From positions 9,289-73,288 of the forward strand of contig PWHN01000099.1 of assembly GCA_003554945.1 (NCBI GenBank): a stretch of 64,000 nt of DNA. Reading direction: 5' to 3'. Below the pieces are notes generated by a model. It was given only the letters and a program-made list of their open reading frames with translations, was not told the DNA's origin and ran no database searches. Source of the DNA: a bacterium. Lineage in GTDB: Bacteria; T1Sed10-126. Position 1 is the first letter of the stretch. Every line of letters starts with the position of its first letter. Below are positions 32,900 through 63,555 of the stretch, piece by piece. The translations under genes were made by a program, and so were the position numbers.

Positions 32900-33092
32900 C
32901 AATTTTATCTAAATTATTCAGACTGACAAAATCAGCTAAAGGGGGGAGACAAAAGGGGAGAAAAGATGGCTTGCCGGGTCAAGCAGCGTCATGCCGGACT
33001 TGATCCGGTATCGAAAGTGATGAAATCGTTGGAAAGTCTGAGTTGCATTTTATCACTATTTTGTATAAACTTATATTAACAGCTTAACAGAT

Positions 33093-33590: not shown

Positions 33591-33841
33591 TGCTTGTTCT
33601 TACCCGAAAAGTTGACGAACGCGTTATGATTGGCGACGACATTGAGATTATGATTGTCGATCAGGACGGCGATCAGGTCAAACTGGGAATTGAAGCACCG
33701 CGTGAGATACCGATTCATCGCCGCGAGGTTTATGAAGAAATCCAGAAAGAAAACATCGAAGCAGCCCGCGCAAGCGGGGAGGAGACCCGTTCTGTGGCAG
33801 AGTTTCTTAAACAACAAAGTGAAGAAAAAAAAGAATCTTAA
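33590..33841 (+). CDS. csrA: Carbon storage regulator CsrA
   Basis: [51 protein letters not shown]. Its start overlaps the fliW stop. Confidence 0.9.
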
Positions 33842-33849
33842 AAAAATAT

Positions 33850-33878
33850 TTGACAAACGGCGATTGATGTCCGATAAT
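33850..33878 (+). promoter_or_regulatory. Sigma70-like promoter (TTGACA-N17-GATAAT) immediately after the csrA stop
   Basis: TTGACA at 33850-33855, a 17-nt spacer, and GATAAT at 33873-33878. Confidence 0.45.
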
Positions 33879-33884
33879 TAGATT

Positions 33885-34021
33885 GACATAAGAAAAAGTC
33901 AGCAAGGATGCTGGCTGGAGGACAATTTTTTCACATGGAGGTTTGATAATATTACACTTGTAAACTTAGCCTATTCTTGGTGTGCAGTCTCGGACTGCGC
34001 AGGCAGGGGTAGGTTTTTTTT
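33885..34021 (+). ncRNA. Candidate small RNA with multiple GGA motifs (possible CsrA-titrating sRNA)
   Basis: Bounded by the promoter at 33850-33878 and a T8 run at 34013-34020 preceded by GC-rich structure. Contains the hairpin gtcagcaAGGAtgctggc with AGGA in its loop, plus ctGGAGGAcaa, catGGAGgtt and caGGcaGGGGtaGG. Confidence 0.3.
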
Positions 34022-34185
34022 GTGCACCATGTTGTATACGCGCTTTTTTTGGGGCTCATGAGAGTTAAAGTTGGATTAGTAGTATTTGTAGTAACTCTGG
34101 ATTGATCTTTTTTCTTTTTTGCTCTACGGGGTAAACGGTTCGACGTCATTTGACGGCCGGACTGAAGCTCTTTGACATTCAAATA

Positions 34186-34210
34186 TAGTCGATAGGTTGA
34201 GACAGCCTGG
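34186..34210. repeat. Upstream arm of the inverted repeat bracketing flagellin gene 1 (partner at 35315-35340)
   Basis: tagtcgataggttgagacagcctgg versus downstream cccgggctgtctcgcctatcggctat. About 22 of 25 positions are complementary, with one indel. Confidence 0.6.
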
Positions 34211-34350
34211 ACGCCGGTATGGTGGTTGTATCCTCCGCCGCTTTAGTGGGGAACAACTGCTGTTACCGGACTGTTTTACCACGTTTTTTTTACATCATTA
34301 GTGCTTGACTGCACAGGACTATCAGTACAATTTAGCACAATCTTAGCACA

Positions 34351-34390
34351 ATTCGAATCAAGGACGATTCGATCTTAACTCCAGGAGGGA
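34351..34390 (+). promoter_or_regulatory. 5'UTR CsrA-binding-type hairpin (tcgaatc-AAGGAC-gattcga) plus SD ccaggaggga for flagellin 1
   Basis: Perfect 7-bp stem with a GGA-containing loop at 34353-34372. A second GGA lies in the SD at 34381-34390. The same module occurs before flagellins 3 and 4. Confidence 0.6.
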
Positions 34391-34401
34391 GTGTTCTACC
34401 G

Positions 34402-35295
34402 ATGGGTGGTATGTTTAGAATTAACACTAACGTTCAGGCTACATTTGCACAACGACAGTTACACAGAAGTTCTGGTGATCTTGACCAGGCGCAGGAGCGT
34501 CTGTCCAGTGGTTTACGTATTAACGTGGCTGCTGATGACGCCGCTGGACTGGCCATTGCTGAGAAATTGAGCATGGCCGGCCGTGGTCTTGACCAGGCGC
34601 AGTCTAACGCTCAGGACGGTATATCAGTACTTCAGACCGCCGAGGGTGGTCTTGAGTCTATTGGTGACGACCTGCAGCGGATGCGTGAGCTGGCTGTTCA
34701 GGCAGCTAACGACAGCTTGACTGACGATGACCGTGAACTGATCCAGACTGAGATTTCTCAGCTGGTAGATGAGGTTGACCGAACCGCCTCCACGGTTCAG
34801 TTTAACCAGCGTCAACTGCTTACCAATCAATTTGGTGAAGTTGACGAGGCTGGACGAGCTACTGCTGGAGAGGCATCACTGACTTTCCACATTGGCGCTA
34901 ACCGTGACGAGACAATCACGGTGGCCATGGGAGACGGTCAAGCTATTCAGACGGCTACCTCGCAAGCGCTTGGTATTCGTGTCGACGACGCCCCGATAAG
35001 CGTTGAATCACGTGAGGGTGCTGAATCGGCGATCGAAACGGTTACCCAGGCGATTAACGAAGTTTCGGAAACTCGCGCTAACATTGGTGCCGTTCAGAAC
35101 CGTCTCGAGGGAGCTGTTGACTTCCTGCAGATCCAGGGAGAGAACACCGAGGCTTCCGAGAGCGCGATTCGTGACGCTGACATTGCCGCGGAAGCGGTCA
35201 ACCAGACCCGAGCTAACATCTTGACTCAAGCCGGTACTTCCGTGCTTGCACAGGCCCAGCAGACGCCGCAGATGGCGCTGCAGTTGCTCGGTTAA
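34402..35295 (+). CDS. fliC: Flagellin (paralog 1, 297 aa)
   Basis: MFRINTNVQATFAQRQL...LSSGLRINVAADDAAGLAIAEKL and a C-terminal ANILTQAGTSVLAQAQQTPQMALQLLG. Confidence 0.9.
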   Translation: MGGMFRINTNVQATFAQRQLHRSSGDLDQAQERLSSGLRINVAADDAAGLAIAEKLSMAGRGLDQAQSNAQDGISVLQTAEGGLESIGDDLQRMRELAVQAANDSLTDDDRELIQTEISQLVDEVDRTASTVQFNQRQLLTNQFGEVDEAGRATAGEASLTFHIGANRDETITVAMGDGQAIQTATSQALGIRVDDAPISVESREGAESAIETVTQAINEVSETRANIGAVQNRLEGAVDFLQIQGENTEASESAIRDADIAAEAVNQTRANILTQAGTSVLAQAQQTPQMALQLLG

Positions 35296-35314
35296 CTTTT
35301 TTAGTTCTTTTTTA

Positions 35315-35340
35315 CCCGGGCTGTCTCGCCTATCGGCTAT
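35315..35340. repeat. Downstream arm of the flagellin-1 inverted repeat
   Basis: Reverse complement atagccgataggcgagacagcccggg matches 34186-34210. Confidence 0.6.
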
Positions 35341-35402
35341 CTTTTATTTTTACGAAAAACTGCTGGTGCGGTTTATGCCACAGCGGATGGGAATGAGATG
35401 AA

Positions 35403-35792
35403 ATGAATCATGGGACCGGAGCGATTGAGGGACCCGAGTTTCAAAATAGTTTGATCCAAAATAATAATTTGAACAGAGCCGAAACTACGGCTGAAACAGA
35501 CCGACCGGATAACTCTGCCGGAGCAGCGGTCGAGCGACCGGTTGCTGAGACTACCGTAAGTGTAGAGGATCAGGCAGTTGCCGAAGCTGTTGAAGAACTC
35601 GATCAGGCGGCCGCCGAAGCCTCTTTTTACGGGATTGATTTTAATATCTTGCCCGATGACAACCTGGTCCAGGCACGGTTGATCAGCCAGGAGAATGAGG
35701 AGTTGATTCGCGCTATCCCGCCTGATGAACTGCTGGAAATAAGGCAGCGCGTTGACGCTTTCATAGGACTGTTGTTTGATGTGACAAGATAA
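35403..35792 (+). CDS. flaG: FlaG-like flagellar protein
   Basis: C-terminal IRAIPPDELLEIRQRVDAFIGLLFDV matches the FlaG IPPEELL signature. Lies between flagellin genes. Confidence 0.6.
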   Translation: MNHGTGAIEGPEFQNSLIQNNNLNRAETTAETDRPDNSAGAAVERPVAETTVSVEDQAVAEAVEELDQAAAEASFYGIDFNILPDDNLVQARLISQENEELIRAIPPDELLEIRQRVDAFIGLLFDVTR

Positions 35793-35861
35793 CAAAACTT
35801 CATCGCCGCCCGGGTCACGGAAGACCTGGTTAAAAATCTCCAGGAGGGAGCTGAAGCCGCT

Positions 35862-36752
35862 ATGGGCGGTTTATTTCGTGTTAACACCAATACGCAGGCG
35901 ACCTTTATTGAGCGCCAGCTCTATCGCAATACCCGGCAACTGGATCGGGCGCAGGAACGTCTGGCCAGTGGCTTCAGGATTAATCGGGCAGCTGACGATG
36001 CAGCCGGGCTGGCTATTTCTGAAAAGTTGCGCATGGCCGAGCGCGGCCTGAGTCAGGCTCAGGCCAACGCTCAGGACGGGATCTCACTCCTTCAGACTGC
36101 CGAAGGTGGTATGGAGACAGTTACAGAAGATTTACAGAGAATTCGTGAGCTCAGCTTACAAGCGGCCAACGACAGTCTTACCGACTCCGATCGTGAATTA
36201 ATTCAGGCTGAAATAAATCAACTTGTCCAGGAGATAGACCGTACGGCCTCTACCGTGCAGTTTAACCAGCGTCAGCTGCTTAAAAATGATTTTGGAACTG
36301 TTGATGCTGGCGGTCGGGTCCAGGATGACGGCCGAGCTTCCCTTGCTTTCCACATTGGTGCCAACCGTAACGAAATTATCAGGGTTACTACAAACGAATT
36401 AGGAACTACTACCTCACGTTCTTTGAACCTGAGAACCGAGGATACTTCGCTAAGTATCAGTACACGCGAGGCCGCCGAGTCGGCAATCGAAGTGGCTACC
36501 CGGGCAATTAACCAGGTCTCCCGGCAGAGGGCTAATATTGGAGCACTTCAGAATCGACTCGAGGGTGCGGTCGATTTTCTCCAAATTCAAGAAGAAAATA
36601 CTCAACGTGCCGACAGCCGCATACGTGACGCTGACATCGCCCGGGAGACGATGAATATGACCCGCTCTCAAATTCTTGTCCAGGCCGGCACCTCGCTGCT
36701 TGCCCAGGCCCAGGAACTGCCCCGCACCATCCTCCAAATACTGGGCATCTAA
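35862..36752 (+). CDS. fliC: Flagellin (paralog 2, 296 aa)
   Basis: MGGLFRVNTNTQATFIERQL...LASGFRINRAADDAAGLAISEKL and a C-terminal QILVQAGTSLLAQAQELPRTILQILGI. Confidence 0.9.
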   Translation: MGGLFRVNTNTQATFIERQLYRNTRQLDRAQERLASGFRINRAADDAAGLAISEKLRMAERGLSQAQANAQDGISLLQTAEGGMETVTEDLQRIRELSLQAANDSLTDSDRELIQAEINQLVQEIDRTASTVQFNQRQLLKNDFGTVDAGGRVQDDGRASLAFHIGANRNEIIRVTTNELGTTTSRSLNLRTEDTSLSISTREAAESAIEVATRAINQVSRQRANIGALQNRLEGAVDFLQIQEENTQRADSRIRDADIARETMNMTRSQILVQAGTSLLAQAQELPRTILQILGI

Positions 36753-37034
36753 CTTTTTTCTTTTTTCTAAAGCTATCTTTGAAGTTTTTAGATTCCAGTT
36801 CCAGGTTTTAACTCGCAACACGCAACACGCAATAAGGTTTATGGTTTTGAAGTTTGATTTCAACTTTAAACTAAAAACTATAAACTGGAAACTAATTTTA
36901 TCCCGCAACTACACTTTTACACTTTCCCACTTTCTAACTTTCCCACTAACAAATTTCTCCACTCAAGATTTTTCCTCCGTAGTCGATAATTAAGAACAGG
37001 ATTATTACGAGACGACAGGGATCTTTGACATGTG

Positions 37035-37063
37035 AATACAGCCGGCGAACGGGGACCTGGCCC
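37035..37063. repeat. Upstream arm of the inverted repeat bracketing flagellin gene 3 (partner at 38061-38090)
   Basis: aatacagccggcgaacggggacctggccc. The downstream reverse complement is aatacagccggcgaacggagacctggcccg (29 of 30). Confidence 0.75.
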
Positions 37064-37093
37064 TTTTGTAGCATCAGTACGACCGTTGAACTT

Positions 37094-37132
37094 CGAATCA
37101 AGGATGATTCGATTCTAAAATTCCAGGAGGGA
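37094..37132 (+). promoter_or_regulatory. 5'UTR hairpin tcgaatc-AAGGAT-gattcga plus SD ccaggaggga for flagellin 3
   Basis: Same module as at 34351-34390, with one loop substitution. Confidence 0.6.
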
Positions 37133-37143
37133 GTGTTCTAATT

Positions 37144-38043
37144 ATGGGAGGTCTATTTCGAATCAACACAAACGTGCAGGCCACGTTCTCTCAACGTCAA
37201 CTGCACAGAAGTTCCGCTGATCTTGACAGAGCACAGGAGCGTTTGTCCAGCGGGTTAAGGATTAACGTCGCCGCAGACGATGCCGCAGGACTGGCTATTG
37301 CTGAGAAGTTAGAAATGGCTGGCCGCGGTTTAAGCCAAGCCCAGGACAACGCTCAGGACGGTATATCCGTCCTGCAAACCGCTGAGGGTGGTCTTGAATC
37401 CATTGGAGACGACCTGCAGCGGATGCGTGAGCTGGCCGTGCAAGCTGCTAACGACAGTTTGACTGACGACGATCGTGAACTGATCCAGACTGAGATTTCT
37501 CAGCTGGTCGATGAGATCGATCGCACAGCTTCCACGGTGCAGTTCAACCAGCGTCAGCTTTTAACCAACGAGTTTACAACCGTTGACGAATCTGGCGAGG
37601 CCCAAGAAGGTGAAGGCCCGGGTTCGCTTTCTTTTCACATTGGAGCGAACCGTGACGAGGTCATTACCGTGGACGTGGAAGACGACATTCAGACCGCAAC
37701 TGCTACAGCACTCGGTATTCGCGACGCTGACACGGGAGAACCCGTGAGCGTTGAAACCCGAGAACTTGCCGAATCCACGATCCAAACCGTTTCCGAGGCG
37801 ATTAACGAGGTCTCGGAAAGTCGGGCCAACATCGGTGCCGTTCAGAATCGGCTCGAAGGTGCCGTCGATTTTCTCCAGATTCAGTATGAGAATACCGAGG
37901 CATCGGAGAGCGCGATTCGTGACGCTGACATTGCCGAAGAAGCTGTTAACCAGACAAGGGCCAACATTTTGACCCAGGCCGGTACTTCCGTTCTTGGTCA
38001 GGCACAGCAAACGCCACAGATGGCCCTGCAGCTTCTGCAGTAG
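37144..38043 (+). CDS. fliC: Flagellin (paralog 3, 299 aa)
   Basis: MGGLFRINTNVQATFSQRQL...; N- and C-termini near-identical to paralog 1. Confidence 0.9.
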   Translation: MGGLFRINTNVQATFSQRQLHRSSADLDRAQERLSSGLRINVAADDAAGLAIAEKLEMAGRGLSQAQDNAQDGISVLQTAEGGLESIGDDLQRMRELAVQAANDSLTDDDRELIQTEISQLVDEIDRTASTVQFNQRQLLTNEFTTVDESGEAQEGEGPGSLSFHIGANRDEVITVDVEDDIQTATATALGIRDADTGEPVSVETRELAESTIQTVSEAINEVSESRANIGAVQNRLEGAVDFLQIQYENTEASESAIRDADIAEEAVNQTRANILTQAGTSVLGQAQQTPQMALQLLQ

Positions 38044-38060
38044 TTTTTTACTGACCTTTC

Positions 38061-38090
38061 CGGGCCAGGTCTCCGTTCGCCGGCTGTATT
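38061..38090. repeat. Downstream arm of the flagellin-3 inverted repeat
   Basis: cgggccaggtctccgttcgccggctgtatt, 18 nt after the stop codon. Confidence 0.75.
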
Positions 38091-38125
38091 TTTGAGCTGA
38101 TTTTCTCCAAGGGAGTTTTATTTCC

Positions 38126-39088
38126 ATGAAAGTAACTTTTTCTTCTGAACAGCCGCTTGAAATTGAAGCGCCTGACCCCGAGCAGAAGCTGGGAGATTAT
38201 ATCGATTTTGTAAATAAAAAATTAAGCGATGTAAACCGGTTTATTTTTTCTGCCGAGGTCGACGGCGAACAAATTACAGAAGAACGCTGCCGGCAGAAAT
38301 GTGATTCGTTTGAAGAATTAAAGCTGGAAGCCCGCTCTTTCGAAGAGATGACCATCGACACCATTGGCCGCTTAGGAGCTTATTGCCAGGAATACCTGGC
38401 TAAACTTCCACAGGTCATTGACGAGTGGAAAAAAAAGAGCGACGAAGAGAAAAATGCATTGCGTCGTCAAGTGCTTGAAGCTATAAATCTGGCCGGTAAG
38501 GTTCTGGACTCGATTGATGATTTTCTTGACGTCGCAGTGGAAGAACATGACACAATAAAAAGCAGAACAGAAAAATTGGCGGGGCAGTTTCGTGAGGCAG
38601 GGAGAGAAGAATTGAAGTCCTTGCTAACAGAGCAGGGGAGCGAATATTTTTCTGAATTATTTGACCACCTCAGAGCTGTACTGGATTACGTTGACGGGCA
38701 AAAAGATGCTGAGTCAGACCAGCTTTCACGTCTGGGCCGCCAGCTCGATGAACTGCACGAAGAACTAACCAACCTTATTAATAAATTCCAGGGCGGGGAT
38801 ATTGCCGACGCTTACGACCAATTGACTGATCGAGCTACTGAAATAGATGAATTGCTTGCTGTTATCGGCGGGTTGGACAAGACTGGTTTCCTCAAACGTA
38901 ATTTCACACCGGAAACTCAGGACGAATTAAGTCAGGCCCATACAGAACTTCACCGCGGTCTCACCGAATTACTTCAGGCCGTGGAGGAGCGCGATCCGAT
39001 AATGGTCTGCGACATACTTGAGTATGAGTTTTTACCCTACCTTGAATCTCTCCAAAAACTCTTTGGCAGCGTCGACGAAGCGGAATAG
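38126..39088 (+). CDS. Hypothetical acidic coiled-coil protein embedded in the flagellin array
   Basis: 320-aa ORF with no recognisable motif. It sits between flagellins 3 and 4 and lacks the CsrA-type leader. Confidence 0.5.
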   Translation: MKVTFSSEQPLEIEAPDPEQKLGDYIDFVNKKLSDVNRFIFSAEVDGEQITEERCRQKCDSFEELKLEARSFEEMTIDTIGRLGAYCQEYLAKLPQVIDEWKKKSDEEKNALRRQVLEAINLAGKVLDSIDDFLDVAVEEHDTIKSRTEKLAGQFREAGREELKSLLTEQGSEYFSELFDHLRAVLDYVDGQKDAESDQLSRLGRQLDELHEELTNLINKFQGGDIADAYDQLTDRATEIDELLAVIGGLDKTGFLKRNFTPETQDELSQAHTELHRGLTELLQAVEERDPIMVCDILEYEFLPYLESLQKLFGSVDEAE

Positions 39089-39093
39089 ATCGC

Positions 39094-39122
39094 TAAAGAA
39101 TTTTTTTAATCAAACCGATAAT
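39094..39122 (+). promoter_or_regulatory. Sigma28 (FliA)-type promoter candidate for flagellin 4
   Basis: TAAAGAAT-N13-CCGATAAT, against the consensus TAAAGTTT-N11-GCCGATAA. Confidence 0.4.
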
Positions 39123-39172
39123 ATAACTCAAAGCTAAGTACTATACCTCAATAAAACTATGTTCTCTGACAA

Positions 39173-39208
39173 TTAAATACGGCCGGTGTGACGTTTCCTC
39201 TCCCGGAG
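39173..39208. repeat. Upstream arm of the inverted repeat bracketing flagellin gene 4 (partner at 40298-40331)
   Basis: aaatacggccggtg is a perfect 14-nt core. An imperfect extension CCTCTCCCGGAG matches CCTCTCGCCGGTG in the partner arm. Confidence 0.6.
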
Positions 39209-39273
39209 TTGTTCTTTTTTTAGCATTTATTTATCTTTTTTATCCTTTTTGGAACAGCTCTCTGCTGTTCCAA

Positions 39274-39313
39274 TCGAATCAAGGACGATTCGATTACACT
39301 CCATAGAGGGAGG
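39274..39313 (+). promoter_or_regulatory. 5'UTR hairpin tcgaatc-AAGGAC-gattcga plus SD agagggagg for flagellin 4
   Basis: Same module again. It is preceded by another palindrome, ggaacagctctctgctgttcc (39251-39271). Confidence 0.6.
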
Positions 39314-39321
39314 CATGTACT

Positions 39322-40290
39322 ATGTCAGAACTTTTTCGTATTCAGAATAACATTGCCGCTCAGTTTGCACAGCGGCAACTTAACCGCTCTGATTCTACAT
39401 TAAACGAAGCCCAGGAAAGGCTTTCCAGTGGTTACAGAATTAACACCGCCTCGGACGATGCTGCCGGTCTTGCTATTTCGGAACGACTGCGAATGGCAGA
39501 CCGAGGCCTCGGTCAGGCGGAGAGAAACGCACAGGACGCTATTTCAGTTCTGCAGACCGCCGAAGGAGGCCTGGAAACTATTGGCGATAACCTTCAGCGG
39601 ATGCGCGAACTGGCCGTTCAAGCGGCTAACGACAGCCTGACCTGGGATGACCGGAGGTTGATCCAGACTGAGGTTGATCAGCTGGTCGAGGAGATCGATC
39701 GTAGTGCCTCGAGCGTGCAGTTCAACCAGCGACAGCTTCTTAAGAACGACTTTGGAACTGTCGACGCGTCTGGTGAAACTGAAGAAGGTTCGGGATCATT
39801 AGTCTTTCACGTCGGGGCTAACCGGGATGAAGTCATGGAGATTACAACCGATGAACTGCGAACCATGACTTCGGTTAACCTTGGTCTCCGACTCACGGAA
39901 GACCGGAATGAGATCATTGAATATCCCGGCGGTACTCTCTTGTATGGCCCCGACGATCAGTATTATGCTCTCAGTCTTTACCGGGACTCAGCCGGTAATT
40001 TGGATCGTAATGCTGCTGAATCCGCTATCGAGCGGATTACCCGGGCCATTGACCAGGTTTCAGACTCGAGAGCACGAATTGGTGCTGTTCAGAACCGTGT
40101 TGAGTCTACTATTGACTTCCTGCAACTTCAGCAGGAGAACACGCAGGCTTCTGAAAGCAGAATTCGTGACGCTGATTTGGCGGAAGAGTCCGTCCGACGG
40201 ACTCAAGCCGACATCCTGATGCAGGCCGGTACTTCCGTGCTTGCCCAGGCTAATCAGCAGCCTCAACTGGCATTACAGTTGTTGGCTTAG
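39322..40290 (+). CDS. fliC: Flagellin (paralog 4, 322 aa, divergent with a central insert)
   Basis: LSSGYRINTASDDAAGLAISERL and a C-terminal ADILMQAGTSVLAQANQQPQLALQLLA. Confidence 0.85.
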   Translation: MSELFRIQNNIAAQFAQRQLNRSDSTLNEAQERLSSGYRINTASDDAAGLAISERLRMADRGLGQAERNAQDAISVLQTAEGGLETIGDNLQRMRELAVQAANDSLTWDDRRLIQTEVDQLVEEIDRSASSVQFNQRQLLKNDFGTVDASGETEEGSGSLVFHVGANRDEVMEITTDELRTMTSVNLGLRLTEDRNEIIEYPGGTLLYGPDDQYYALSLYRDSAGNLDRNAAESAIERITRAIDQVSDSRARIGAVQNRVESTIDFLQLQQENTQASESRIRDADLAEESVRRTQADILMQAGTSVLAQANQQPQLALQLLA

Positions 40291-54143: not shown

Positions 54144-54195
54144 TATATTATGTAAAATCGGAGATATGCAATTATCTCCGATTTTACATAATATA
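54144..54195. repeat. Perfect 23-bp inverted repeat with a 6-nt spacer between convergent genes
   Basis: tatattatgtaaaatcggagata-tgcaat-tatctccgattttacataatata. Confidence 0.8.
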
Positions 54196-54232: not shown

Positions 54233-54442
54233 TTATGACCATAGAAAGGTCAACAAAACCACGAGCTGGCTGCCCAGCGCCGTTGCTAATATTACTATCA
54301 GGACAGTCAATACAGCCCATTTGCTGTCGGAATCGCTCTCTTTGCTAAATTGATAGTCCTCGTGTCCGGGAACTCCTGTGAGCTGGCGTTTTCCGTTGCG
54401 TCTCTTTTCGCTGCGGTCTAGCGCCTCTTTAATCAGTGACAT
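54233..54442 (-). CDS. Small membrane protein downstream of the exeA-like gene
   Basis: 69-aa ORF overlapping the exeA-like stop. C-terminal TM helix WAVLTVLIVILATALGSQLVVLL. Confidence 0.3.
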   Translation of the reverse strand: MSLIKEALDRSEKRRNGKRQLTGVPGHEDYQFSKESDSDSKWAVLTVLIVILATALGSQLVVLLTFLWS

Positions 54443-56243
54443 CCCTGTCGCTTAACCTCCTTATAAAAGACTTTATTTCCTCTCCTGTCCAATCTGGTTC
54501 TCCGCGTCCCGATTCACTCAACAGCAGCGCCAGGGTCTCTTGGTCAATCTCTCCACTTGGTTCTAAGCCAACCTCATTCTGAAAATCCACTACAGAATTT
54601 TCGGTTTGTGGCCCAAAAAATTCAGTTCCAGGCAGATCATAGTCGCCGACTAAATTTAGTAATTCCTGAATCTCTTTAATTTCCTCTGTTTCCATCCAGA
54701 TGCTGTAAGTTGTCTCCGGGTCGACTATGAGTTCATCCGGGAAGACAATAATTTCTTTTTGCCATTTTTTGTCTGCTGTGTCACCGTTCAAATCAGTCCA
54801 GCCATAAATTGGGTCCCAGGCCCGGTCATCAGCCCCTGGTGTTATTAATACATAACGACTTTTTTCTTCGCCCCACAAACCAAGTAGCGGTATATCTACT
54901 TCCGATAAGTTATCCGCACTTAGCTTTAGGTATGTCGGTGTAGATGTCAATATTTCCGGAAAATATTCTTCAAATTCTGCTTCTTTTATATAATTATCGC
55001 TGTCAATGTTTTGTTCATCAACTTTTTGGTCGGAGTATGCACTTATCAGTCTACTCAAACTTAAAAATTTCCCCCGGTCCCCCGGCAGTTGGTCTGCTTC
55101 CACCGGTTCTATTTTTAACGGATTGGGTAGCGGCTCTTCTTCCTTTTCCTTTTTCTCTTTCTCTTCTTCCTCTGTTTTTGAAACAATCCCCTCCTCTACT
55201 TCACTCGTGCTGATTACCGGTGCATCAGACGATAGGATTGTTTGCATCTGATTTATCACCCAGCCCAGGCCGGCTCCCAGGAATAAGACGACAAGGGCTG
55301 CTGCTAACGCTCTTAAAAGCCAACCGGGGTTTGATAACCTGTCGCGCAAACACGACGAGTTAATCAGTGAGCGTAGTCTCCGTATTGCTCGTGAGCTGGT
55401 TAAATAACCGTTTTTATATCCTTCGCCGTCCGCCAACAGCTCCTCGGCCGCCGTAACCAGGTGCTGCTTGTTGATCAGGTGTGTCTCCTCAACGTAAGCT
55501 GCCATCAGGGCACGGTCGCAGATTAAGTTTATCAGTCGCGGATTGCCGCGAGTTACCTGGTAAAGTTTTTTAAATACATCGCGACTTACCTTTAACGGTT
55601 TTTCAGGCTGGGCTACTTCCAACCGATGCAGCACATACTCCCGGGTTTCTTCTCTGTCAAGATTCGACAGGTGACTGCGCACCGCAATTCTCTGTTTTAA
55701 CTGGCGCAGCTCTTTTTCCCCCAGCAGGCTGTTTAGTTCTGGCTGTCCGACCAATACAATCTGAAATAGTTTCTCTTTGTCCGTCTCAAAATTAGACAAA
55801 AGACGCAGGTTCTCCAGCACGTCGTAGTCCAAATTCTGTGCTTCGTCAATAACCAGACAGACGTTATTGCCCCGTTCATACTGGTCGATTACAAACTCCT
55901 GTAATAGATCGATTACTTCCTTTTTTGTCGGGTTCTCTGGCAGTTTTATACCCAGGTCTTCGGCAATTGTCAGCAGAAGTTCGTTGAAATTCATGGTTGA
56001 ATTTAAGACAAGCGCAGTTTTTACTGATTCGTCCAGTTCCTTTAAAAAGGCCCTACATACTGTGGTTTTCCCCGTCCCCACCCGCCCGGTTACCAGCACG
56101 AAACCCTTGCGCTCCTGCACGCCATACATCATGTGCGCGAGGGCTTCCTTGTGCTGGTCGCTGTAATAGAGAAAGTCGGGATCTGGTGTAACGTTGAACG
56201 GCTTGTTCTTAAAACCAAAATAATTTTCGTAAACTTCGCGCAT
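54429..56243 (-). CDS. ExeA/GspA-like AAA ATPase with a C-terminal peptidoglycan-binding domain
   Basis: N-terminus YFGFKNKPFNVTPDPDFLYYSDQHKEALAHMMYGVQERKGFVLVTGRVGTGKTT (AAA_22). A TM segment ALAAALVVLFLGAGLGWV. C-terminal VVDFQNEVGLEPSGEIDQETLALL (PG_binding_1-like). Confidence 0.7.
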   Translation of the reverse strand: MREVYENYFGFKNKPFNVTPDPDFLYYSDQHKEALAHMMYGVQERKGFVLVTGRVGTGKTTVCRAFLKELDESVKTALVLNSTMNFNELLLTIAEDLGIKLPENPTKKEVIDLLQEFVIDQYERGNNVCLVIDEAQNLDYDVLENLRLLSNFETDKEKLFQIVLVGQPELNSLLGEKELRQLKQRIAVRSHLSNLDREETREYVLHRLEVAQPEKPLKVSRDVFKKLYQVTRGNPRLINLICDRALMAAYVEETHLINKQHLVTAAEELLADGEGYKNGYLTSSRAIRRLRSLINSSCLRDRLSNPGWLLRALAAALVVLFLGAGLGWVINQMQTILSSDAPVISTSEVEEGIVSKTEEEEKEKKEKEEEPLPNPLKIEPVEADQLPGDRGKFLSLSRLISAYSDQKVDEQNIDSDNYIKEAEFEEYFPEILTSTPTYLKLSADNLSEVDIPLLGLWGEEKSRYVLITPGADDRAWDPIYGWTDLNGDTADKKWQKEIIVFPDELIVDPETTYSIWMETEEIKEIQELLNLVGDYDLPGTEFFGPQTENSVVDFQNEVGLEPSGEIDQETLALLLSESGRGEPDWTGEEIKSFIRRLSDRDVTD

Positions 56244-56245
56244 TA

Positions 56246-57085
56246 TTAGTTCAGCTCCCTGTGCTGGAGGGCCGGCAGTTTCCGGCGTATCTCATTTATT
56301 CTGTTTCTATTTATTGTGAAATTTAACAGTCCCGGGCGTCTTTTTTTCTCAGCCACCACTTGCCCCCAGGGATCAACCACCAGGCTGTTACCATGGCTGT
56401 CGACGCCGTTAATTCTATTTTTTCCTGTCTGTGCCGGTGCAATCACGTAACATTGATTTTCAATAGCTCGAGCTTGCAGCAGTGGCCGCCAGTGGACCTT
56501 TCCTGTCTCATCGGTGAAGCAGGCCGGCACGAAAATAACTTCCGCCCCCGCTTTGCTCAGTTGCCGAAAAAGTTCTGGAAAGCGGAGGTCGTAGCAGATA
56601 CCGACACCGCACTTGAACCCGTCAAAATCCACTACCGCAACCTCTTTCCCCGGCTTTAAATAGTCCGCCTCTCTTAGCTTGAACTCATCCGCAAGCTCAA
56701 TGTCGAACAGATGTATTTTTCGGTAAAAGGCGCTAATTTCACCGGTGCTGTCTATAAAATAGGCCGTGTTATAAAATCCTCCCGCCTCGCCGACCGGTTC
56801 CGGAATTGATCCGGCAATAATATTTATCTTCTCTTCTTTTGCTTTTTTTCTTAGCTGTTTTAGTCCTTCTTCTCCCGCTTTATAACCAAGAGTTCTAATG
56901 GTATCACCGTCACCCCGCAGCAGGAAGTTTTCGGGAAAAGCAATCAGCGAGCAGCCGTCTGTCCGCGCCGACTCAATCAAATTCAGTGTCTGCCGGAGGT
57001 TATCTTCAAAGTCCCCTGATGCGTCGACCTGAGCCAGAGACCAGCGACGCTGGTTCTTTTGTTCAAATTTGCTGTTTTCGACCAT
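56246..57085 (-). CDS. Carbon-nitrogen hydrolase (nitrilase superfamily)
   Basis: SLIAFPENFL carries the catalytic Glu; KIHLFD carries the Lys; GVGICYDLRFPE carries the Cys. Confidence 0.8.
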   Translation of the reverse strand: MVENSKFEQKNQRRWSLAQVDASGDFEDNLRQTLNLIESARTDGCSLIAFPENFLLRGDGDTIRTLGYKAGEEGLKQLRKKAKEEKINIIAGSIPEPVGEAGGFYNTAYFIDSTGEISAFYRKIHLFDIELADEFKLREADYLKPGKEVAVVDFDGFKCGVGICYDLRFPELFRQLSKAGAEVIFVPACFTDETGKVHWRPLLQARAIENQCYVIAPAQTGKNRINGVDSHGNSLVVDPWGQVVAEKKRRPGLLNFTINRNRINEIRRKLPALQHRELN

Positions 57086-57091
57086 AAATCA

Positions 57092-57766
57092 TCATTCGAT
57101 GCCGCGACTAAAGTGTGTCTGGCCCGGCTGTAGAACAATCACTTCTGCTTCGTAGCCGACCAGCTTTTTGAACTTTTCCGGGTCCTGGCTTATCGGTTCA
57201 AAAGTGTTGTAGTGCATTGGTATTACCTGGCTAACGCCCAGCATCTCGACGGCGCGGCTTGCGCTCGGGGGCCCCATGGTAAAGCGATCTCCGATCGGCA
57301 GTAGCGCAAGCTCGGGTTCAAGCATCTCGCCGATCAGCTCCATGTCGGAGAACAGTCCCGTGTCTCCGGCGTGATAGACGTTTAACTCAGGTGTTTCAAT
57401 GACAAAGCCGCACTGGTGACCGAGGGCGCCGGAAGAATGTAGTGCTTCGGTCATGTGAAATTTGACCTCTTCACCGCTAACACTCCCCCCAATATTCATC
57501 GGTTCTACATCGCTAACCCCCTGCTCGCTGGCGTCGACGGTAATTTCATAATTGGCAACCAGTGTTGCCCCGGTATTTTTGCAAATTTTCACCGCCTGTC
57601 CGTAGTGGTCATCGTGGCCGTGGGTAACCGTTACGTAGTCGGCCGACTTTATTTCATCAACTTCTATTGGACAGAGCTCGTTGCCTTCGATGAACGGATC
57701 CACGTAAATTTTGTCATTCTCAGTCTCCAATTTAAAAAAGGCGTGACCGTACCATGTTACTTCCAC
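57092..57766 (-). CDS. Metallo-beta-lactamase-fold metal-dependent hydrolase (UPF0173-like)
   Basis: MEVTWYGHAFFKLE...IYVDPF and HGHDDHYG (the HxHxDH motif). Confidence 0.7.
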   Translation of the reverse strand: MEVTWYGHAFFKLETENDKIYVDPFIEGNELCPIEVDEIKSADYVTVTHGHDDHYGQAVKICKNTGATLVANYEITVDASEQGVSDVEPMNIGGSVSGEEVKFHMTEALHSSGALGHQCGFVIETPELNVYHAGDTGLFSDMELIGEMLEPELALLPIGDRFTMGPPSASRAVEMLGVSQVIPMHYNTFEPISQDPEKFKKLVGYEAEVIVLQPGQTHFSRGIE

Positions 57767-58153
57767 TGCAATTCACCTCTAAAATAAATGTTAGACGCAG
57801 ATAAACTATGTCGGGATAAAATGAAGGTTGGGGTAAGAGGATTTGAAGACAGGAGTGCGCCGCTCTCTTCTACAATCGACATTTTTTGTCCCACCGGTAT
57901 TTTCTGGTATATTCGTTCTCTCTTCTCTGGCTGCTGTGTCTAAGGCTGTCTTTGTCGATCTATTTTCGTCTATTTATAGTTTACAATCTATTCCGAGAAA
58001 TTTCCAGTTTTGATTTTATCAGAACCCTCCACCGATTTCGTCATTGCCGGGCTTGACCCGGCAATCCATCTTGAATATACCATAGATTCCGGGTCTGCGG
58101 TCGCTACGCTCCCTTGCCCGGAATGACGTTGGAAGGTTTTGTGATTTTATTTT

Positions 58154-59152
58154 TCATTTTTTTATCACTAAATCGTTCCAGATATACTCTGGTTCCATGC
58201 ACAAACCGACGCGCAGATTTTCTACCGGCAGCCAGTTTAAGAATTTGCGGTAGGCTGCCGTTCGGCGAAAACGCGGGTATCTGTATTTGCCGTCCGGCCC
58301 CCGCACAAACTCGTCCCGAATAAAATCACGCCCCGGGAATCGCTTCTCAATTGTTTGATCAAGACCGGCCGGGAAACGAAAACAACCCAAAATGATATAC
58401 TGCAGTTGTTTGGGGTTTATTTCTGCGAAAATATGTTCCACCAACTGTCGGTATTCTTCTTCCCAGTCTCTTTGAAGAATAATTGGATCCAGTCGCAAGG
58501 CGCAGTTAAAACCGGCCTCGGCCAGGCGCTTGAGTGCCTTTATACGCTCTTTGGGCGCCGCGGTTCGAAGCTCAATACGGCGGGCAACCGATGGCGGGCT
58601 TAGTGTCCAGGCAAAAGTAACGTTTTTCAGCGGCATCAATTCTCTAAGCACCGGCCCTACATTTATGCTTTTACTCCGAATTTCAAGCCTTACCTGTTCG
58701 TTTTTTTGAAACAAGTTCCAGATGAAGGGCAAAAAATGCATTACCGGCTCCAGCTCTAATCCGTCACTCAGCTCACCGAGACTGAAGTATTTCTCGCCCG
58801 TTTTTATCCGCTGCTCTATTTCCTGATAGATAAGCTCATAATTTACAGTCGCTCTCGGTACCGATTCCTGCAGGTAAGTCAGCAGGTAGCAGTAGCAGCA
58901 GTCAAAGGGACAGCCTTCTACCGGGCTGATACAGTTTTCGGCCCGGTCAGGCAGGGGCGGGTGGTGTTCCCATTTATTTACGTGTGAACTCGAAACTGCG
59001 TTTAACACCAGGCTCTGTCTGGAATTCTGCTCAATCTCATCCGGACTCAACACCTCTATACCCAGCCGTTCGGCACGTTCAATTATTTCGCGGCCCCGTT
59101 TTGTATTTCTGGCCTCCCGTTCCACCAGAAGACGTTTAAGTCCGGTTTTCAA
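58154..59152 (-). CDS. Spore-photoproduct-lyase-like radical SAM protein
   Basis: The CPFDCCYCYL cluster gives a Cx3Cx2C arrangement. Overall length and acidic/basic pattern resemble SplB-family DNA-repair radical SAM enzymes. Confidence 0.55.
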   Translation of the reverse strand: MKTGLKRLLVEREARNTKRGREIIERAERLGIEVLSPDEIEQNSRQSLVLNAVSSSHVNKWEHHPPLPDRAENCISPVEGCPFDCCYCYLLTYLQESVPRATVNYELIYQEIEQRIKTGEKYFSLGELSDGLELEPVMHFLPFIWNLFQKNEQVRLEIRSKSINVGPVLRELMPLKNVTFAWTLSPPSVARRIELRTAAPKERIKALKRLAEAGFNCALRLDPIILQRDWEEEYRQLVEHIFAEINPKQLQYIILGCFRFPAGLDQTIEKRFPGRDFIRDEFVRGPDGKYRYPRFRRTAAYRKFLNWLPVENLRVGLCMEPEYIWNDLVIKK

Positions 59153-60060
59153 ACCAGATCAAACAGCCGGCGACATTTTTTGATTGCGCGGAGGAGCTTC
59201 TCAAAATCTTCCTCTTTTGACCAGCGAAAAGAAAAATCGAGGTAATCTCCTTCAAAATTTTGTGGCGGTTTTACATTTATTCGCCCGTCAAGATCCAGCT
59301 CCTCCAATTTTTTAGAAAAATTTTCTCGGTAGTTGGTAAGTTCTGGGTAAGCTCTTTTGTTAATTCCATTAAGCAGCTTTTCAGTCTGTTTTTTTAGGTC
59401 ATCTTTTGATTCTAAACAGCTGCGAGCAAGACCGATAATTTCAGGTAATTCGTCTCTGGGCAGCCGCCGCACGGCTGTGCTTAACTGCCTTGCTTCCTGC
59501 ACTGTCAGCCGCAGTCGCTGTTCGGCCAGTGCTTGTGTTAGAAGCGTAAACAGCTCTTCAGGAAGGTCATTCAGCTGATAGAAGAGGTTGATGCTGATCT
59601 GCTCGTCCTGCAGCTGTTTTTGCAGCTCTGAGGGCAATTGTGGGAAAGCGAGGTATGTCTCAATCCACTGCTCAGCAGGGGGGATTTGCAGTGATTGACT
59701 GGCCAGTTGTTTCAGTTGGCTTGTTGTAGATTTTTTTTTATTTTTTAAAAAATTGAGCACATATCCCTTTTCCAGGGCACTAATTCGGTCGACTTGTTGC
59801 CACAGTTCGAGTGTCAACTCAATATGGGAAGGTTGAGTCTCTTCAACCAGCAGCAGCGGCCCTCTGTTTTCGCTCGTTTGGGCGAATTTTCGCGGCTGCC
59901 AGAGGACTTTCAATTCAGACCCTTCATCGACCACCCAGGTGGGAAGCAGTTTTTGCTGTTCAGCTCTTTTTTCATCTGATAATTTTTCTTGTCTGGCGTA
60001 ATCCAGCAGAGGGCTGGTTTTAAGCTGGCCGTTCGCTTGGGAAATGGCGGTAATTTTCAT
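59149..60060 (-). CDS. Hypothetical protein
   Basis: 303-aa ORF overlapping the downstream radical-SAM gene by 4 nt. No motif recognised. Confidence 0.5.
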   Translation of the reverse strand: MKITAISQANGQLKTSPLLDYARQEKLSDEKRAEQQKLLPTWVVDEGSELKVLWQPRKFAQTSENRGPLLLVEETQPSHIELTLELWQQVDRISALEKGYVLNFLKNKKKSTTSQLKQLASQSLQIPPAEQWIETYLAFPQLPSELQKQLQDEQISINLFYQLNDLPEELFTLLTQALAEQRLRLTVQEARQLSTAVRRLPRDELPEIIGLARSCLESKDDLKKQTEKLLNGINKRAYPELTNYRENFSKKLEELDLDGRINVKPPQNFEGDYLDFSFRWSKEEDFEKLLRAIKKCRRLFDLV

Positions 60061-60079
60061 TCGGGTTTCAGATTAGAAG

Positions 60080-60463
60080 TCAAGAAGAGACCCCGGGAGA
60101 AAATTCAGGGGCCCTGAGTGCCTCTTCCAGGTCGAGAACGTCATCAAAATCCTCAATGCTGTCCTCGTCTTGTTTGGTCATCAGTCCGGCATCAATGAGC
60201 AGGTAGACAATTTCGCCGAGATCGCTGGTTGAAAATACGCCCCATTCCTGGAAAACAGTGTGAGCCAAATCGCCAAACTCCTGGCGGGCGTAAGCGACCA
60301 GCATCTCGGTAAATTCCTGGCCGCTTAAATGACGTCGTTGGCCCAGTTCGACAAAAGACCACTGGATCCCGTTGAGGACGAACAGAAGTGCCTCGCGGGG
60401 ATAACGCTTGTCACGTTGAGAGAGCTCTGTCATTTTTTGTAATATGTCTCCATTGTTACTCAT
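60080..60463 (-). CDS. Hypothetical small acidic protein
   Basis: 127-aa ORF between nadK and the 303-aa ORF, on the same strand and tightly spaced. Confidence 0.45.
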   Translation of the reverse strand: MSNNGDILQKMTELSQRDKRYPREALLFVLNGIQWSFVELGQRRHLSGQEFTEMLVAYARQEFGDLAHTVFQEWGVFSTSDLGEIVYLLIDAGLMTKQDEDSIEDFDDVLDLEEALRAPEFSPGVSS

Positions 60464-60484
60464 CTTATCATCATACTCCTCTGT

Positions 60485-61333
60485 TTACGTTCTTCCGCTC
60501 CATTGGAGTTTTGAGGCCAGAAGCTCATAAAAACTGAGCTCTGGTGGAACTATGAGCGAGGTCGTGCAGTCAGCTTTCCTAACCCGGGCAATGTCACCAT
60601 TGCTCAGGTTAGTTATTTTTTTTTGGCCATCGGCAATCAGGTGACACCTGTCGTCGGTCAGTAACTCCAGTTCTATCTCACTGTCCGGCGGCAGTATTAA
60701 CGGCCGGTTGGTCAATGTGTGCGGGCAGATGGGGTTCAGGATAAGAGAATCCATCTCCGGGTGAACAATCGGTCCGTTGGCCGCTAGATTATAAGCGGTG
60801 GAACCGGTCGGTGTACTGATTAATATACCGTCGCAGACAAAACGAGTTACCAAATCGTCATTCACCCGCGCCTCTATTTCAACCACTCTACCATGCTTTT
60901 CGCGGCTTAATACCATGTCGTTCAAAGCCAGCATTTCACTTCCGTTATCGCTGGTTTGACCGCGCAACATTGAACGTTCGCTAACTTTGTATTTATTGTT
61001 TATTATTCGAGGCAACGCCGTTTCCAGACCCTCCAGGGTTGTCTCCGTTAAAAACCCTAACTGACCGGAATTTATTCCTAAAATTGGCGTCCCTGCCTCG
61101 GCCAACTGGGCCGCTATTCTCAGGATTGAGCCGTCGCCACCAAACACAATCACTACTTCACAGGTTTTTCCAATCTCTTCAACACTTAATTTTTCCAGCT
61201 CTGCCCCTGTTTTCTCAGGCGCCTCCTCCTCAACGTAAACTTCGCAGTCCTTCTCTACCAGCCAGTTAATCGCTTGCTCGACCCGGTCATAAACTTCAAT
61301 TTTTTTAGGATTGAGCACAATACCTATTTTCAT
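60485..61333 (-). CDS. nadK: NAD kinase
   Basis: VIVFGGDGSILR carries the GGDG motif; NDMVLSR; a DGILISTPTGSTAYNLAANGPI-type region. Confidence 0.85.
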   Translation of the reverse strand: MKIGIVLNPKKIEVYDRVEQAINWLVEKDCEVYVEEEAPEKTGAELEKLSVEEIGKTCEVVIVFGGDGSILRIAAQLAEAGTPILGINSGQLGFLTETTLEGLETALPRIINNKYKVSERSMLRGQTSDNGSEMLALNDMVLSREKHGRVVEIEARVNDDLVTRFVCDGILISTPTGSTAYNLAANGPIVHPEMDSLILNPICPHTLTNRPLILPPDSEIELELLTDDRCHLIADGQKKITNLSNGDIARVRKADCTTSLIVPPELSFYELLASKLQWSGRT

Positions 61334-61534
61334 TTATGAACTTACCTTTCTCGGTTTGTATCCCGCTGAGGCTCTCTTGCTCAAATATTATATCAAACCA
61401 GCCGTAAAAGCCCAGACAGTAAACTTTCAAAACCTTTTTTCTAACTAAAGCTTTGTGTTTTGCAAGCAAGATAGTCTATATCTTTCTCTATGCGTTTATT
61501 TTTGGTCAAGTAGAGATTGGACCCTAATTTGTAA

Positions 61535-61680
61535 AAAAAGAAGCAGTAGTTCTGAGGACCGATGTGTTTCTGACGGATTTATAACGACCTCAGACCCCAG
61601 GATGGGGTTGTTTTGAGGTCTTTATACCTCGGAAGTGGCCTGGAGGGCCACGAGAATGATGTCAGAAATATATCGGTCCT
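61535..61680. other. Large structured inverted-repeat element (candidate ncRNA or cruciform) next to the DnaA-box cluster
   Basis: Outer arms agtagttctgaggaccgatgtgtttctgac and gtcagaaatatatcggtcctcagaacgggg. Inner hairpins gacctcagaccccaggatggggttgttttgaggtc and gtggcctggagggccac. Confidence 0.35.
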
Positions 61681-61722
61681 CAGAACGGGGAAACTGCAAA
61701 ACTTGAGTTTCTAAACAAGCCT

Positions 61723-61806
61723 GTGGATAAACTGTGAATAAGACGGCGGTCACTTGTGAGTTGGTCTGTGGATAAAACCTATATTTTGTTGATAAACTGT
61801 GGATAA
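61723..61806. promoter_or_regulatory. Cluster of same-orientation DnaA boxes (TGTGGATAA = reverse complement of TTATCCACA)
   Basis: Perfect boxes at 61723-61731, 61767-61775 and 61798-61806. One-mismatch boxes TGTGAATAA at 61733-61741 and TGTTGATAA at 61787-61795. An AT-rich stretch follows at about 61810-61950. Confidence 0.55.
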
Positions 61807-62092
61807 ATTGTAAACAACTGCTCTGTTTTCGGATTCGCTAATTATTTTCGGTTTTGATAATCGAAAAATTGTCATTATCAGGATGTAATTCACTTAAAGC
61901 TTTTTATAGCTATTAACATGTAAAAAGCGCTTATGCGGGATTTAGGTGTTTTGATATAGGAAAACATTTAGTAATTACTGCGAAACGAGGGATCAATTTT
62001 AGTCGGAGTTTAAAGGGCCACCGGCGGGGCGGGCGGATTTTGGGGAGAGGTTCTTTGAGTGAGTTCAGAAAAAAAGGAGGGGCAGTTAACTA

Positions 62093-62512
62093 TCAGGTTA
62101 TTTTTTCTCCGGTGGTGGACATGGAAAGTTTTGCATGAATTACCCCTTTCGTGCTTCGCAGTCTGTTGCTAACTTCTTTTAATTTATCAGCCGGGCCGCT
62201 AACTGCTAAAACTTCAAGACAGTTGTGGGCGTCCAGATGAATATGTGTGCTGGAGATTATTTCATCCGTGTAATCGTGTTGTATACTGGTAAGTTGTGAC
62301 AATAATTCGCGTGTGTGATGGTTGTAAACTAAGGATATTGTGCCAACACAGCGTTCGTTCCCCTCTTTCCATTCGGAGTGAACCAGGGCCTCGCGAATCA
62401 GGTCGCGGATTGCCTCGGAACGGCTGGAGTAGTTTTGGCTTTCAATTAATTTATCAAATTCATTCAAGAGTTGTTCGGACAGGGAAACGCCAAATCTTTT
62501 CGTTTCTCCCAT
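62093..62512 (-). CDS. nikR: Nickel-responsive regulator NikR
   Basis: RHH N-terminus MGETKRFGVSLSEQLLNEFDKLI, and C-terminal metal-binding histidines (HHTRE...HIHLDAHNCLEV). An AGGAGG RBS 7 nt upstream of this ATG is why the longer TTG start was rejected. Confidence 0.8.
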   Translation of the reverse strand: MGETKRFGVSLSEQLLNEFDKLIESQNYSSRSEAIRDLIREALVHSEWKEGNERCVGTISLVYNHHTRELLSQLTSIQHDYTDEIISSTHIHLDAHNCLEVLAVSGPADKLKEVSNRLRSTKGVIHAKLSMSTTGEKIT

Positions 62513-62526
62513 TTTTTGACCTCCTA

Positions 62527-63555
62527 TCAACAGATACGGGGTAGTTGTTCTCCGCTTTTAACTTCCAGCACTCTGTCAACACCAAAGGCGCTGCGGGCGC
62601 TGACCAGGTTTTTGTTATCTGCTGTAACTTCGCCAATTGTGGTTGCATCCTGCGTGACTTCCAATTGAGATAAAACTTTGATAGTTTTATCTTCCTCATC
62701 GGGCGGTACGACGACTACCATGCGACCCTCACAGGCTGAGTAAAAGGGGTCCAGGCCTAAAATTTCACAGACGGCGGCCACCTCTTTCTTGACGGGGACA
62801 GCTTCCCGGTCAATACTTATTCCGATTTTTTTGTTGAGCAGCTCGTTTAAGTTAGTGGCCAGTCCTCCGCGTGTCAAATCTCTCATACAGCGCGGCTCTA
62901 TTCCGGCTTTTATAAGCGCCTCAACTGCCGGCCAGAGCGGCGCACAGTCACTTTTTATCTCGCTTTCAAATTCCAGACCTTCACGACGCGACAGCACGGC
63001 CATGCCGTGACTTCCGACGTCTCCGCTCAATACTATTTTATCGCCTGCTTTAATTGCCGCGGGTCCGGAATTTTCTTTTAACAGCACCTCCCCTACTCCA
63101 GCCGTGTTAATGTAGATGCCGTCCGCTTTGCCACGTTCGACTACTTTTGTGTCCCCGGTGACTATTTTTGTCCCGGCAACCTCTGCTGCGTGTTGCATCG
63201 ACTCTATAATTTTTTTAAACTTTTCAAGGGAAAAACCTTCCTCGATTATCAGACCAGCGCTTAGCAGGCGGGGGCGGGCTCCACACATTGCCAGGTCATT
63301 TACGGTTCCCCAGACGGCCAGCTTACCGATGTCTCCGCCCGGAAAAAATAGTGGTGTGACGACAAAGGAATCCGTGGTAAAAGCCAGCCGTTTATTTTCG
63401 GTTTCAAAGACTGCCCCGTCGTGCCTCTGCCGGAGATGTTCGTTGTCAAAATTTGGAAAAATCAATCCCTCCAGCAGTTGGTGGGTAAGCTTCCCGCCGC
63501 CGCCGTGGGAAAGCTGGACTTCATCATACTTTTCAACAGAACTTACCGATGACAT
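62527..63555 (-). CDS. hypE: Hydrogenase maturation protein HypE
   Basis: PurM-like fold, a glycine-rich N-terminus (LSHGGGGKL), and the invariant C-terminal ...PRIC. Confidence 0.85.
   Translation of the reverse strand: MSSVSSVEKYDEVQLSHGGGGKLTHQLLEGLIFPNFDNEHLRQRHDGAVFETENKRLAFTTDSFVVTPLFFPGGDIGKLAVWGTVNDLAMCGARPRLLSAGLIIEEGFSLEKFKKIIESMQHAAEVAGTKIVTGDTKVVERGKADGIYINTAGVGEVLLKENSGPAAIKAGDKIVLSGDVGSHGMAVLSRREGLEFESEIKSDCAPLWPAVEALIKAGIEPRCMRDLTRGGLATNLNELLNKKIGISIDREAVPVKKEVAAVCEILGLDPFYSACEGRMVVVVPPDEEDKTIKVLSQLEVTQDATTIGEVTADNKNLVSARSAFGVDRVLEVKSGEQLPRIC

Follow-up and report, generated by a model that had tools for sequence, protein, structure and literature searches.

A 64,000-nucleotide stretch of DNA from an uncultured bacterium (hereafter the window) carries a dense cluster of DnaA boxes between nadK and nikR, which raises the question of whether this site is a replication origin or a locus at which DnaA acts in another capacity. 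A sequence-only reading of the window had proposed both, a candidate oriC or a DnaA-regulatory locus (a datA/DARS-like site or a promoter), and had counted a large structured element next to the boxes as part of the same site. Examples of DnaA acting as a transcription factor, buffered by box clusters outside the origin, have so far come from a handful of model bacteria, and the array described here is a comparatively supported case in an uncultured lineage. This lineage is deep-branching: its ArgRS is 52-61% identical to those of its relatives, and the next matches, at most 47% identical, belong to Aquificae and Thermodesulfobacteria.

Five DnaA boxes in a single orientation precede nadK

Pfam assignments confirmed that the array lies between nadK, which encodes NAD kinase (60485..61333, - strand), and nikR (62093..62530, - strand). 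The intergenic spacer that holds it measures 759 bp from the nikR stop codon to the nadK start codon. Within 85 bp of this spacer, we found five DnaA boxes in one orientation, three of them perfect copies of TTATCCACA and two with one mismatch, as had been noted from the letters of the sequence, save that the first coordinate had been one off (61722, not 61723). All five lie on the - strand. Read toward nadK, the first tandem pair consists of box a (61798..61806; TTATCCACA, perfect), its distal member, and box b (61787..61795; TTATCAACA, one mismatch), which starts 11 bp from box a. A single perfect box in the middle, box c (61767..61775; TTATCCACA), is followed by the second tandem pair, formed by box d (61733..61741; TTATTCACA, one mismatch) and box e (61722..61730; TTATCCACA, perfect), the box closest to nadK. 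Both pairs have the same start-to-start distance of 11 bp, a 9-mer plus a 2-bp gap, and on the coding strand of nadK the sequence of each box runs 5'-TTATCCACA-3', pointing to nadK.

Perfect boxes number four in the 64-kb window, where 0.39 would be expected, a count that none of 100 shuffles attained. The fourth perfect box (4396-4404) is isolated and lies inside a 1138-aa ORF (1575-4991).

The DNA on the other side of the boxes is AT-rich, as the earlier reading had stated, with 68.5% AT across 61807..61990 compared to a window mean of 52%; its richest 60-mer falls in the top 0.16% of the window. This flank is 5' of all boxes in the TTATCCACA sense, is shared in part with the sister species L003, and carries a repeated CCGAAA motif. 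Two copies of this motif, which reads TTTCGG on the + strand and CCGAAA in gene sense, are spaced about 19-23 nt apart at 61826-61861, 20-50 nt before the first box. It recurs in L003 (~3205-3235) and L007 (~9765-9800), is present once in L005 and is not found in L092. The motif may be a site for a second factor.

The array is conserved upstream of nadK while its other neighbor changes

We collected nadK loci of relatives from one genome-contig scan with NadK, which contributed one locus (L003), and from exact-protein look-ups of NadK homologues. The array is present in the nadK 5' flank of nine of the ten scorable lineages, whose NadK proteins are 51-100% identical to that of the window; it is absent from a high-GC member of the clade (L090/L091), and L006 was left unscored since an assembly gap falls at the array position. 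Among 80 distant nadK loci (NadK 34-42% identical), none had a cluster of three or more boxes. These controls came from a metagenome scan with the clade NadK alignment, and the conserved peptides chosen for it are universal, so that it returned distant NadKs only.

In L003 (NadK 92%), four perfect boxes lie at 3254/3265/3319/3330, and a 309-aa sulfotransferase-like gene stands between the boxes and nadK. Counted from the nadK start, the boxes of the other lineages lie at -214 to -158 in L092 (NadK 66%; upstream gene ridA), at -130, -119 and -74 in L005 (69%; sulfotransferase), at -179 to -123 in L007 and -171 to -115 in L147 (both 51%; FapA), at -94, -83 and -50 in L088, where the spacer is only 108 bp, and at -116 to -41 in L089 (both 51%; HhH-GPD gene), and at -134 to -46 in the 194-bp spacer of L146 (52%; HhH-GPD gene). 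The array is thus found 40-220 nt before the nadK start in seven lineages, 0.39 kb away in the window and 1.5 kb away in L003. Its upstream neighbor varies from lineage to lineage among nikR, ridA, sulfotransferase, FapA and HhH-GPD genes, with nikR found there in the window lineage only. Genes for SHMT, a PALP enzyme and an HhH-GPD glycosylase are found upstream of nadK in several relatives; the SHMT gene of the window is 48 kb distant (11997-13286).

All boxes of a locus share one orientation in each of the nine array-bearing lineages. Eight of these nine have 2-4 copies per locus of the consensus, matched at all nine positions including the 5' TTAT, with a single perfect copy in each of L088 and L146. 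Box e is perfect in eight of the nine lineages, box a is kept in L003, L092, L005, L007, L089 and L088 in a seven-lineage alignment (A4), and the L003 counterpart of box c is TTGTCCACG, in unchanged register. The only invariant columns of alignment A4 are those of the two tandem box pairs, while the AT-rich flank and the rest vary. When the window is compared with L003, 41 of 45 box columns are identical as against 158 of 263 other aligned intergenic columns (Fisher p = 1.9e-5). Since the box columns are conserved above their flank while the upstream neighbors change, the boxes are the selected feature and nadK is their constant partner. The comparison of loci supports a clade-conserved DnaA-box cluster that is tied to the nadK 5' flank, and with it the regulatory half of the earlier proposal.

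The array lies ahead of a conserved operon

Downstream of the array, nadK is the first gene of a conserved operon (Pfam). The string of genes that follows (54429-61333 in the window) is conserved in L005, L007, L088, L089, L090, L146 and L147. Its members are apbC/mrp (in most relatives), a Minf_1886-family protein (TIGR04138), a protein of ~300 aa without a family match, an SPL-like radical SAM enzyme, a metallo-beta-lactamase-fold protein, a CN hydrolase, and an ATPase that combines AAA_22 and peptidoglycan-binding domains.

A scan for sigma-70 promoters and terminators across 61200-62200 reported no sites, and the sole match of a laxer promoter scan was an extended -10 near nadK. This predicted proximal nadK promoter (61387..61395, - strand; TGATATAAT), a match to the consensus only, lies ~59 nt before the start codon and is also conserved in L003. 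In L003, L092, L007 and L147, promoter-like sites follow the last box after 30-75 nt; for L005, L088 and L089, a promoter was predicted weakly or not at all.

To the right, the locus could be followed into L001, a JGI sediment-metagenome contig that is identical to the window over a 5,959-bp overlap and adds 4.8 kb. This extension carries ridA, recQ and a PLD-like gene, all of which share the strand of nikR and nadK. All genes from 54.4 kb to at least 68.8 kb are on the - strand, and most genes at 1-53 kb are on the + strand. Downstream of the last gene of the - strand block, at 54144-54195, is an inverted repeat (TATATTATGTAAAATCGGAGATA / TATCTCCGATTTTACATAATATA) whose 23-nt arms match perfectly around a loop of 6 nt; it could be a terminator or an operator.

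The array may control the nadK operon, titrate DnaA, or both

We favor the reading, at a probability of roughly 65%, that the array is a non-origin DnaA-box cluster of the nadK operon 5' flank that controls transcription of the operon and/or titrates DnaA. The core of the array is two tandem pairs of high-affinity DnaA boxes, to which the window lineage adds the fifth box in the middle. We infer that DnaA binds these strong boxes and would form a short cooperative oligomer on each pair. The 2-bp gap between boxes is the spacing of the cooperative low-affinity DnaA sites at E. coli oriC (PMC6070618), and since the 9-mer plus 2-bp arrangement of the array matches this spacing, each pair could hold such an oligomer. 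In most relatives, the array lies directly upstream of the nadK promoter region or overlaps it. Bound DnaA may then modulate an operon that includes nadK, often apbC/mrp, the Minf_1886-family protein, the hypothetical protein and the SPL-like radical SAM enzyme, although both the target and the direction of this regulation are predictions. The supply of NADP would thereby follow the cell's replication-initiator status, so that, if the model is true, NADP(H) supply would be coupled to the state of replication initiation. We speculate that one plausible link in this coupling is the NADPH that feeds ribonucleotide reduction. Sequestration of DnaA by the array, as in the DnaA-box clusters of B. 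subtilis, may be a by-product or a second role.

The window lineage departs from this arrangement, since an unrelated structured repeat of ~210 nt has been inserted between the array and the nadK promoter, placing the array at about -390. Judging from the conserved box columns, the boxes of the window are still under purifying selection despite this insertion. Since the boxes are intact while lying 0.39 kb (window) and 1.5 kb (L003) from nadK, a position-tolerant role is favored, such as titration or control of another or the first downstream transcript. Direct promoter control of nadK is doubtful in these two lineages, and it is here that a simple promoter model is weakest.

The same two lineages speak for the strongest alternative, in which the array would be a locus devoted to DnaA control, similar in type to datA or the B. 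subtilis clusters and selected for titration or inactivation of DnaA, and its position at nadK would be incidental. Selection on the boxes has persisted in the window and L003 although insertions shifted the array 0.39-1.5 kb from nadK, and a group of high-affinity intergenic boxes fits how datA, with its five boxes, and the B. subtilis clusters are defined (PMC3245932). On the other hand, a pure titration site needs neither a fixed orientation nor closeness to the nadK start, both of which are seen in most lineages, and we consider this alternative unlikely.

A cluster of non-origin DnaA boxes is of a known kind; its putative target gene here is new and its lineage unstudied, and a full-text literature search returned no paper mentioning both DnaA boxes and nadK. 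The array resembles E. coli datA and DARS1/2, which are non-coding DnaA-box clusters and act on DnaA without being origins. In DARS, the core DnaA boxes I and II face opposite ways and are accompanied by a box III; the array does not have this core, since its boxes all share one orientation in nine of nine lineages. In datA, an IHF site between high-affinity boxes is essential, and ATP hydrolysis on DnaA is promoted. Unlike both datA and DARS, the array is tied to a promoter, and it has the same number of boxes as datA (five; PMC3245932).

Precedents for DnaA-box clusters that regulate their neighbors and/or titrate DnaA are the B. subtilis clusters (PMC3245932) and P. aeruginosa oriCII-gidA (PMC13438810). 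Like the B. subtilis clusters, which lie away from the origin and additionally dampen initiation through their binding of DnaA (PMC3245932), the array consists of intergenic consensus DnaA boxes, here probably outside the origin as well, beside genes on whose transcription they could act. The array differs from them in its neighbor, nadK, and in its lineage, and is smaller and very regular, with two tandem pairs in one orientation. P. aeruginosa oriCII, upstream of gidA, is likewise an origin-like DnaA-box cluster that precedes an operon promoter, and it acts as a DnaA-dependent control region (PMC13438810). However, oriCII lies in a classical origin neighborhood (gidAB-parAB), whereas the array lies among metabolic genes without an origin marker.

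Box orientation and comparative context argue against an origin

The second alternative is that the array is the chromosomal oriC of this lineage, relocated beside nadK, with the AT-rich flank as its unwinding element. The array has four to five strong DnaA boxes in phased tandem pairs, the DNA adjoining them is unusually AT-rich, and the locus is conserved across a deep clade, as origins are. It is also similar to the basal unwinding system (PMC8287927, PMC6669920) in having tandem, near-consensus boxes in the same orientation with a 2-bp gap. The B. subtilis unwinding scaffold reads 5'-TTATCCACA-A-ATCCACAG-GCC-CTACTATTACTTCTACTA, and that of E. coli is given in the same sense (PMC8287927 supplement). 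Because both scaffolds are ordered in this way, trios and AT-rich DNA lie 3' of TTATCCACA (PMC8287927), and reversing the proximal boxes renders the B. subtilis origin inactive (PMC6669920).

For every box of the array, the 3' side is the nadK side. Here we found no DnaA-trio array, the longest NTN runs being 1-3 in seven lineages, which is the chance level, and the nadK start codon follows the last box after 41-74 nt in L088, L089 and L005. The AT-rich flank is on the 5' side, opposite to that of the unwinding module, so that all boxes face away from it, and it is missing in L088. The array is therefore unlike the basal unwinding system in having no 3' trio array, in having its AT-rich DNA 5', and in a 3' side that runs into the nadK start codon in several relatives. 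In favor of an origin, ~15% of predicted origins have no box-trio module (PMC8287927). The whole spacer of L088, at 108 bp, has no AT-rich flank, and that of L146 is 194 bp.

The gene content and gene direction around the array also speak against an origin. The sequence-only reading had stated that the site is not next to dnaA or dnaN in the window, and with Pfam neither was found among the ~50 window genes; gidA, parAB, rpmH, gyrB and hemE were likewise not found among these genes and those of the 4.8-kb extension, so that the ~62 kb left of the array and the 7 kb right of it hold no origin marker gene. Genes running through the site are co-directional in all lineages, for at least 7 kb each way in the window, and a fork leaving the array would meet most genes at 1-53 kb head-on.

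An origin-type sign switch was looked for in GC skew at four-fold sites. Gene strand confounds plain GC skew when the window is taken alone, and the four-fold values, which come from short contigs with large scatter from gene to gene, are too noisy to decide by themselves. With the non-nadK side given first and the nadK side second, the values are -0.05/+0.14 in the window, +0.01/+0.13 in L003, +0.04/+0.19 in L146, +0.18/+0.19 in L007, +0.09/+0.02 in L088 and +0.09/-0.10 in L005. Skew on the nadK side exceeds that of the far side in the window, L003, L146 and L147, as it would at an origin, but scatter is large and the far side is near zero rather than negative. L007, L088 and L005 have no switch or the wrong polarity, again on noisy and short contigs, and across these contigs there is no consistent origin-type sign switch.

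Together, an unwinding side without trios, an AT-rich flank on the other side, the 108-bp spacer of L088, co-directional flanking genes, the lack of origin marker genes and the lack of a consistent skew switch in relatives leave the oriC half of the earlier proposal unsupported, and we regard it as improbable. These findings carry a warning for origin-prediction pipelines: dense perfect boxes next to very AT-rich DNA are insufficient to call an origin, and it is box orientation and comparative context that discriminate against one here.

A further alternative, that the repeats are bound by another regulator, such as a winged-helix response regulator of the OmpR/PhoB type, for which direct repeats with 10-11-bp periodicity are the hallmark, would suit the head-to-tail repeats in their exact 11-bp register, but it is very unlikely, since all nine positions fit the near-universal DnaA-box consensus including the 5' TTAT, the variable part is just 2 bp compared to the 6-7 conserved plus 4-5 AT-rich bases usual for winged-helix sites, and no response-regulator gene linked to the locus was found.

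A duplicated structured repeat separates the array from nadK in the window lineage

Between the array and the nadK promoter lies a structured repeat of ~210 nt (copy B; 61493..61703, - strand), present at this place in the window lineage only. Its 138-nt core (61549-61686) is Y-shaped, with outer arms of 26 nt (61549-61574 and 61661-61686) that are 92% complementary, with two hairpins between them. Folding gives a minimum free energy of -85.9 kcal/mol (z -10.7) for the + strand and -74.9 kcal/mol (z -10.3) for the - strand. The element of the earlier description, with 26-nt complementary arms and two internal hairpins, is real. The element does not, however, belong to a DnaA-box locus, as had been supposed: it is a duplicated repeat, absent from the other array-bearing lineages at this position, and is unrelated to the array.

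A second copy lies 2.7 kb away in the recQ-ridA spacer, at 4428-4565 of L001 (~64234-64371 in window coordinates, just outside the window). L003 has the recQ-ridA copy in the corresponding position (931-1068), again with the T7 run after it, and has no copy between its boxes and nadK. BLAST of the element against all fetched loci found copies only in the window genome and L003. The element has been duplicated into the array-nadK spacer in the window lineage. The three copies are 95% identical on average, and their homology extends over ~210 nt, comprising ~15 nt before the stem, the 138-nt core, the T7 run and ~45 nt beyond.

A T7 run follows the structure in all three copies, 5-9 nt past the main stem (in copy B at 61535-61541 on the gene-sense strand), and a short extra helix closes the gap between stem and run (GCAGU/ACUGC in copy B, GCG/CGC in copy A). 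Read on the - strand, the element would resemble an oversized terminator; no terminator was reported by the scan. The evidence on strand is conflicting, with two conserved G-U pairs in the outer stem favoring the + strand and the T7 run and one G-U variant favoring the - strand. With respect to mobile-element (MITE) features, the element has 26-nt inverted arms, homology continues 15-45 nt past the arms, there is no target duplication, and two copies occur in ~69 kb.

Rfam yielded no match in the window at the gathering score, and the best match below it was a spurious microRNA hairpin (26 bits against a gathering score of 89). An attC site, a retron RNA, 6S RNA and Y RNA were rejected on shape or sequence, with no partner gene or Rfam match. 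A scan of viral contigs gave 53 single 14-mer matches, attributable to chance, and none with both arms. Candidate identities for it are a terminator-like element, a small RNA gene or simply a local structured repeat. We have little expectation of either of two more far-reaching outcomes, namely a true origin that breaks the box-trio rule and is unlinked to dnaA/dnaN or, independently, a new class of structured RNA represented by the 138-nt Y-shaped element.

Other inserts and features of the window

A different hairpin is present in L003 (4647-4775), made of G/C tracts with 19-nt inverted arms. It lies exactly in the -10 region of the nadK promoter, where the window has no such hairpin, and is bordered by a TATAATA duplication of the kind that a small mobile insertion would have. 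In the window, a 30-nt imperfect inverted repeat of G/C tracts (CCCCTGGAGGGAGGGGATTAAGGGGAGGGG ...) lies in an intergenic spacer at 16028-16122. We rejected the grouping of these two G/C-tract elements as one family, since they share only the short GGGGATTAAGGGG and BLAST was unsupportive.

The + strand skew at four-fold sites is positive for genes at 1-22 kb and negative at 35-61 kb, whatever the strand of the gene. The change, at ~33000-35000, would represent either a terminus-type polarity change or an old inversion breakpoint. Finally, the window encodes four tandem flagellin paralogues (34402-40290, with starts at 34402, 35862, 37144 and 39322), which are preceded by flgN, flgK, a gene for a flagellin-N-domain protein (possibly FlgL) and fliW.
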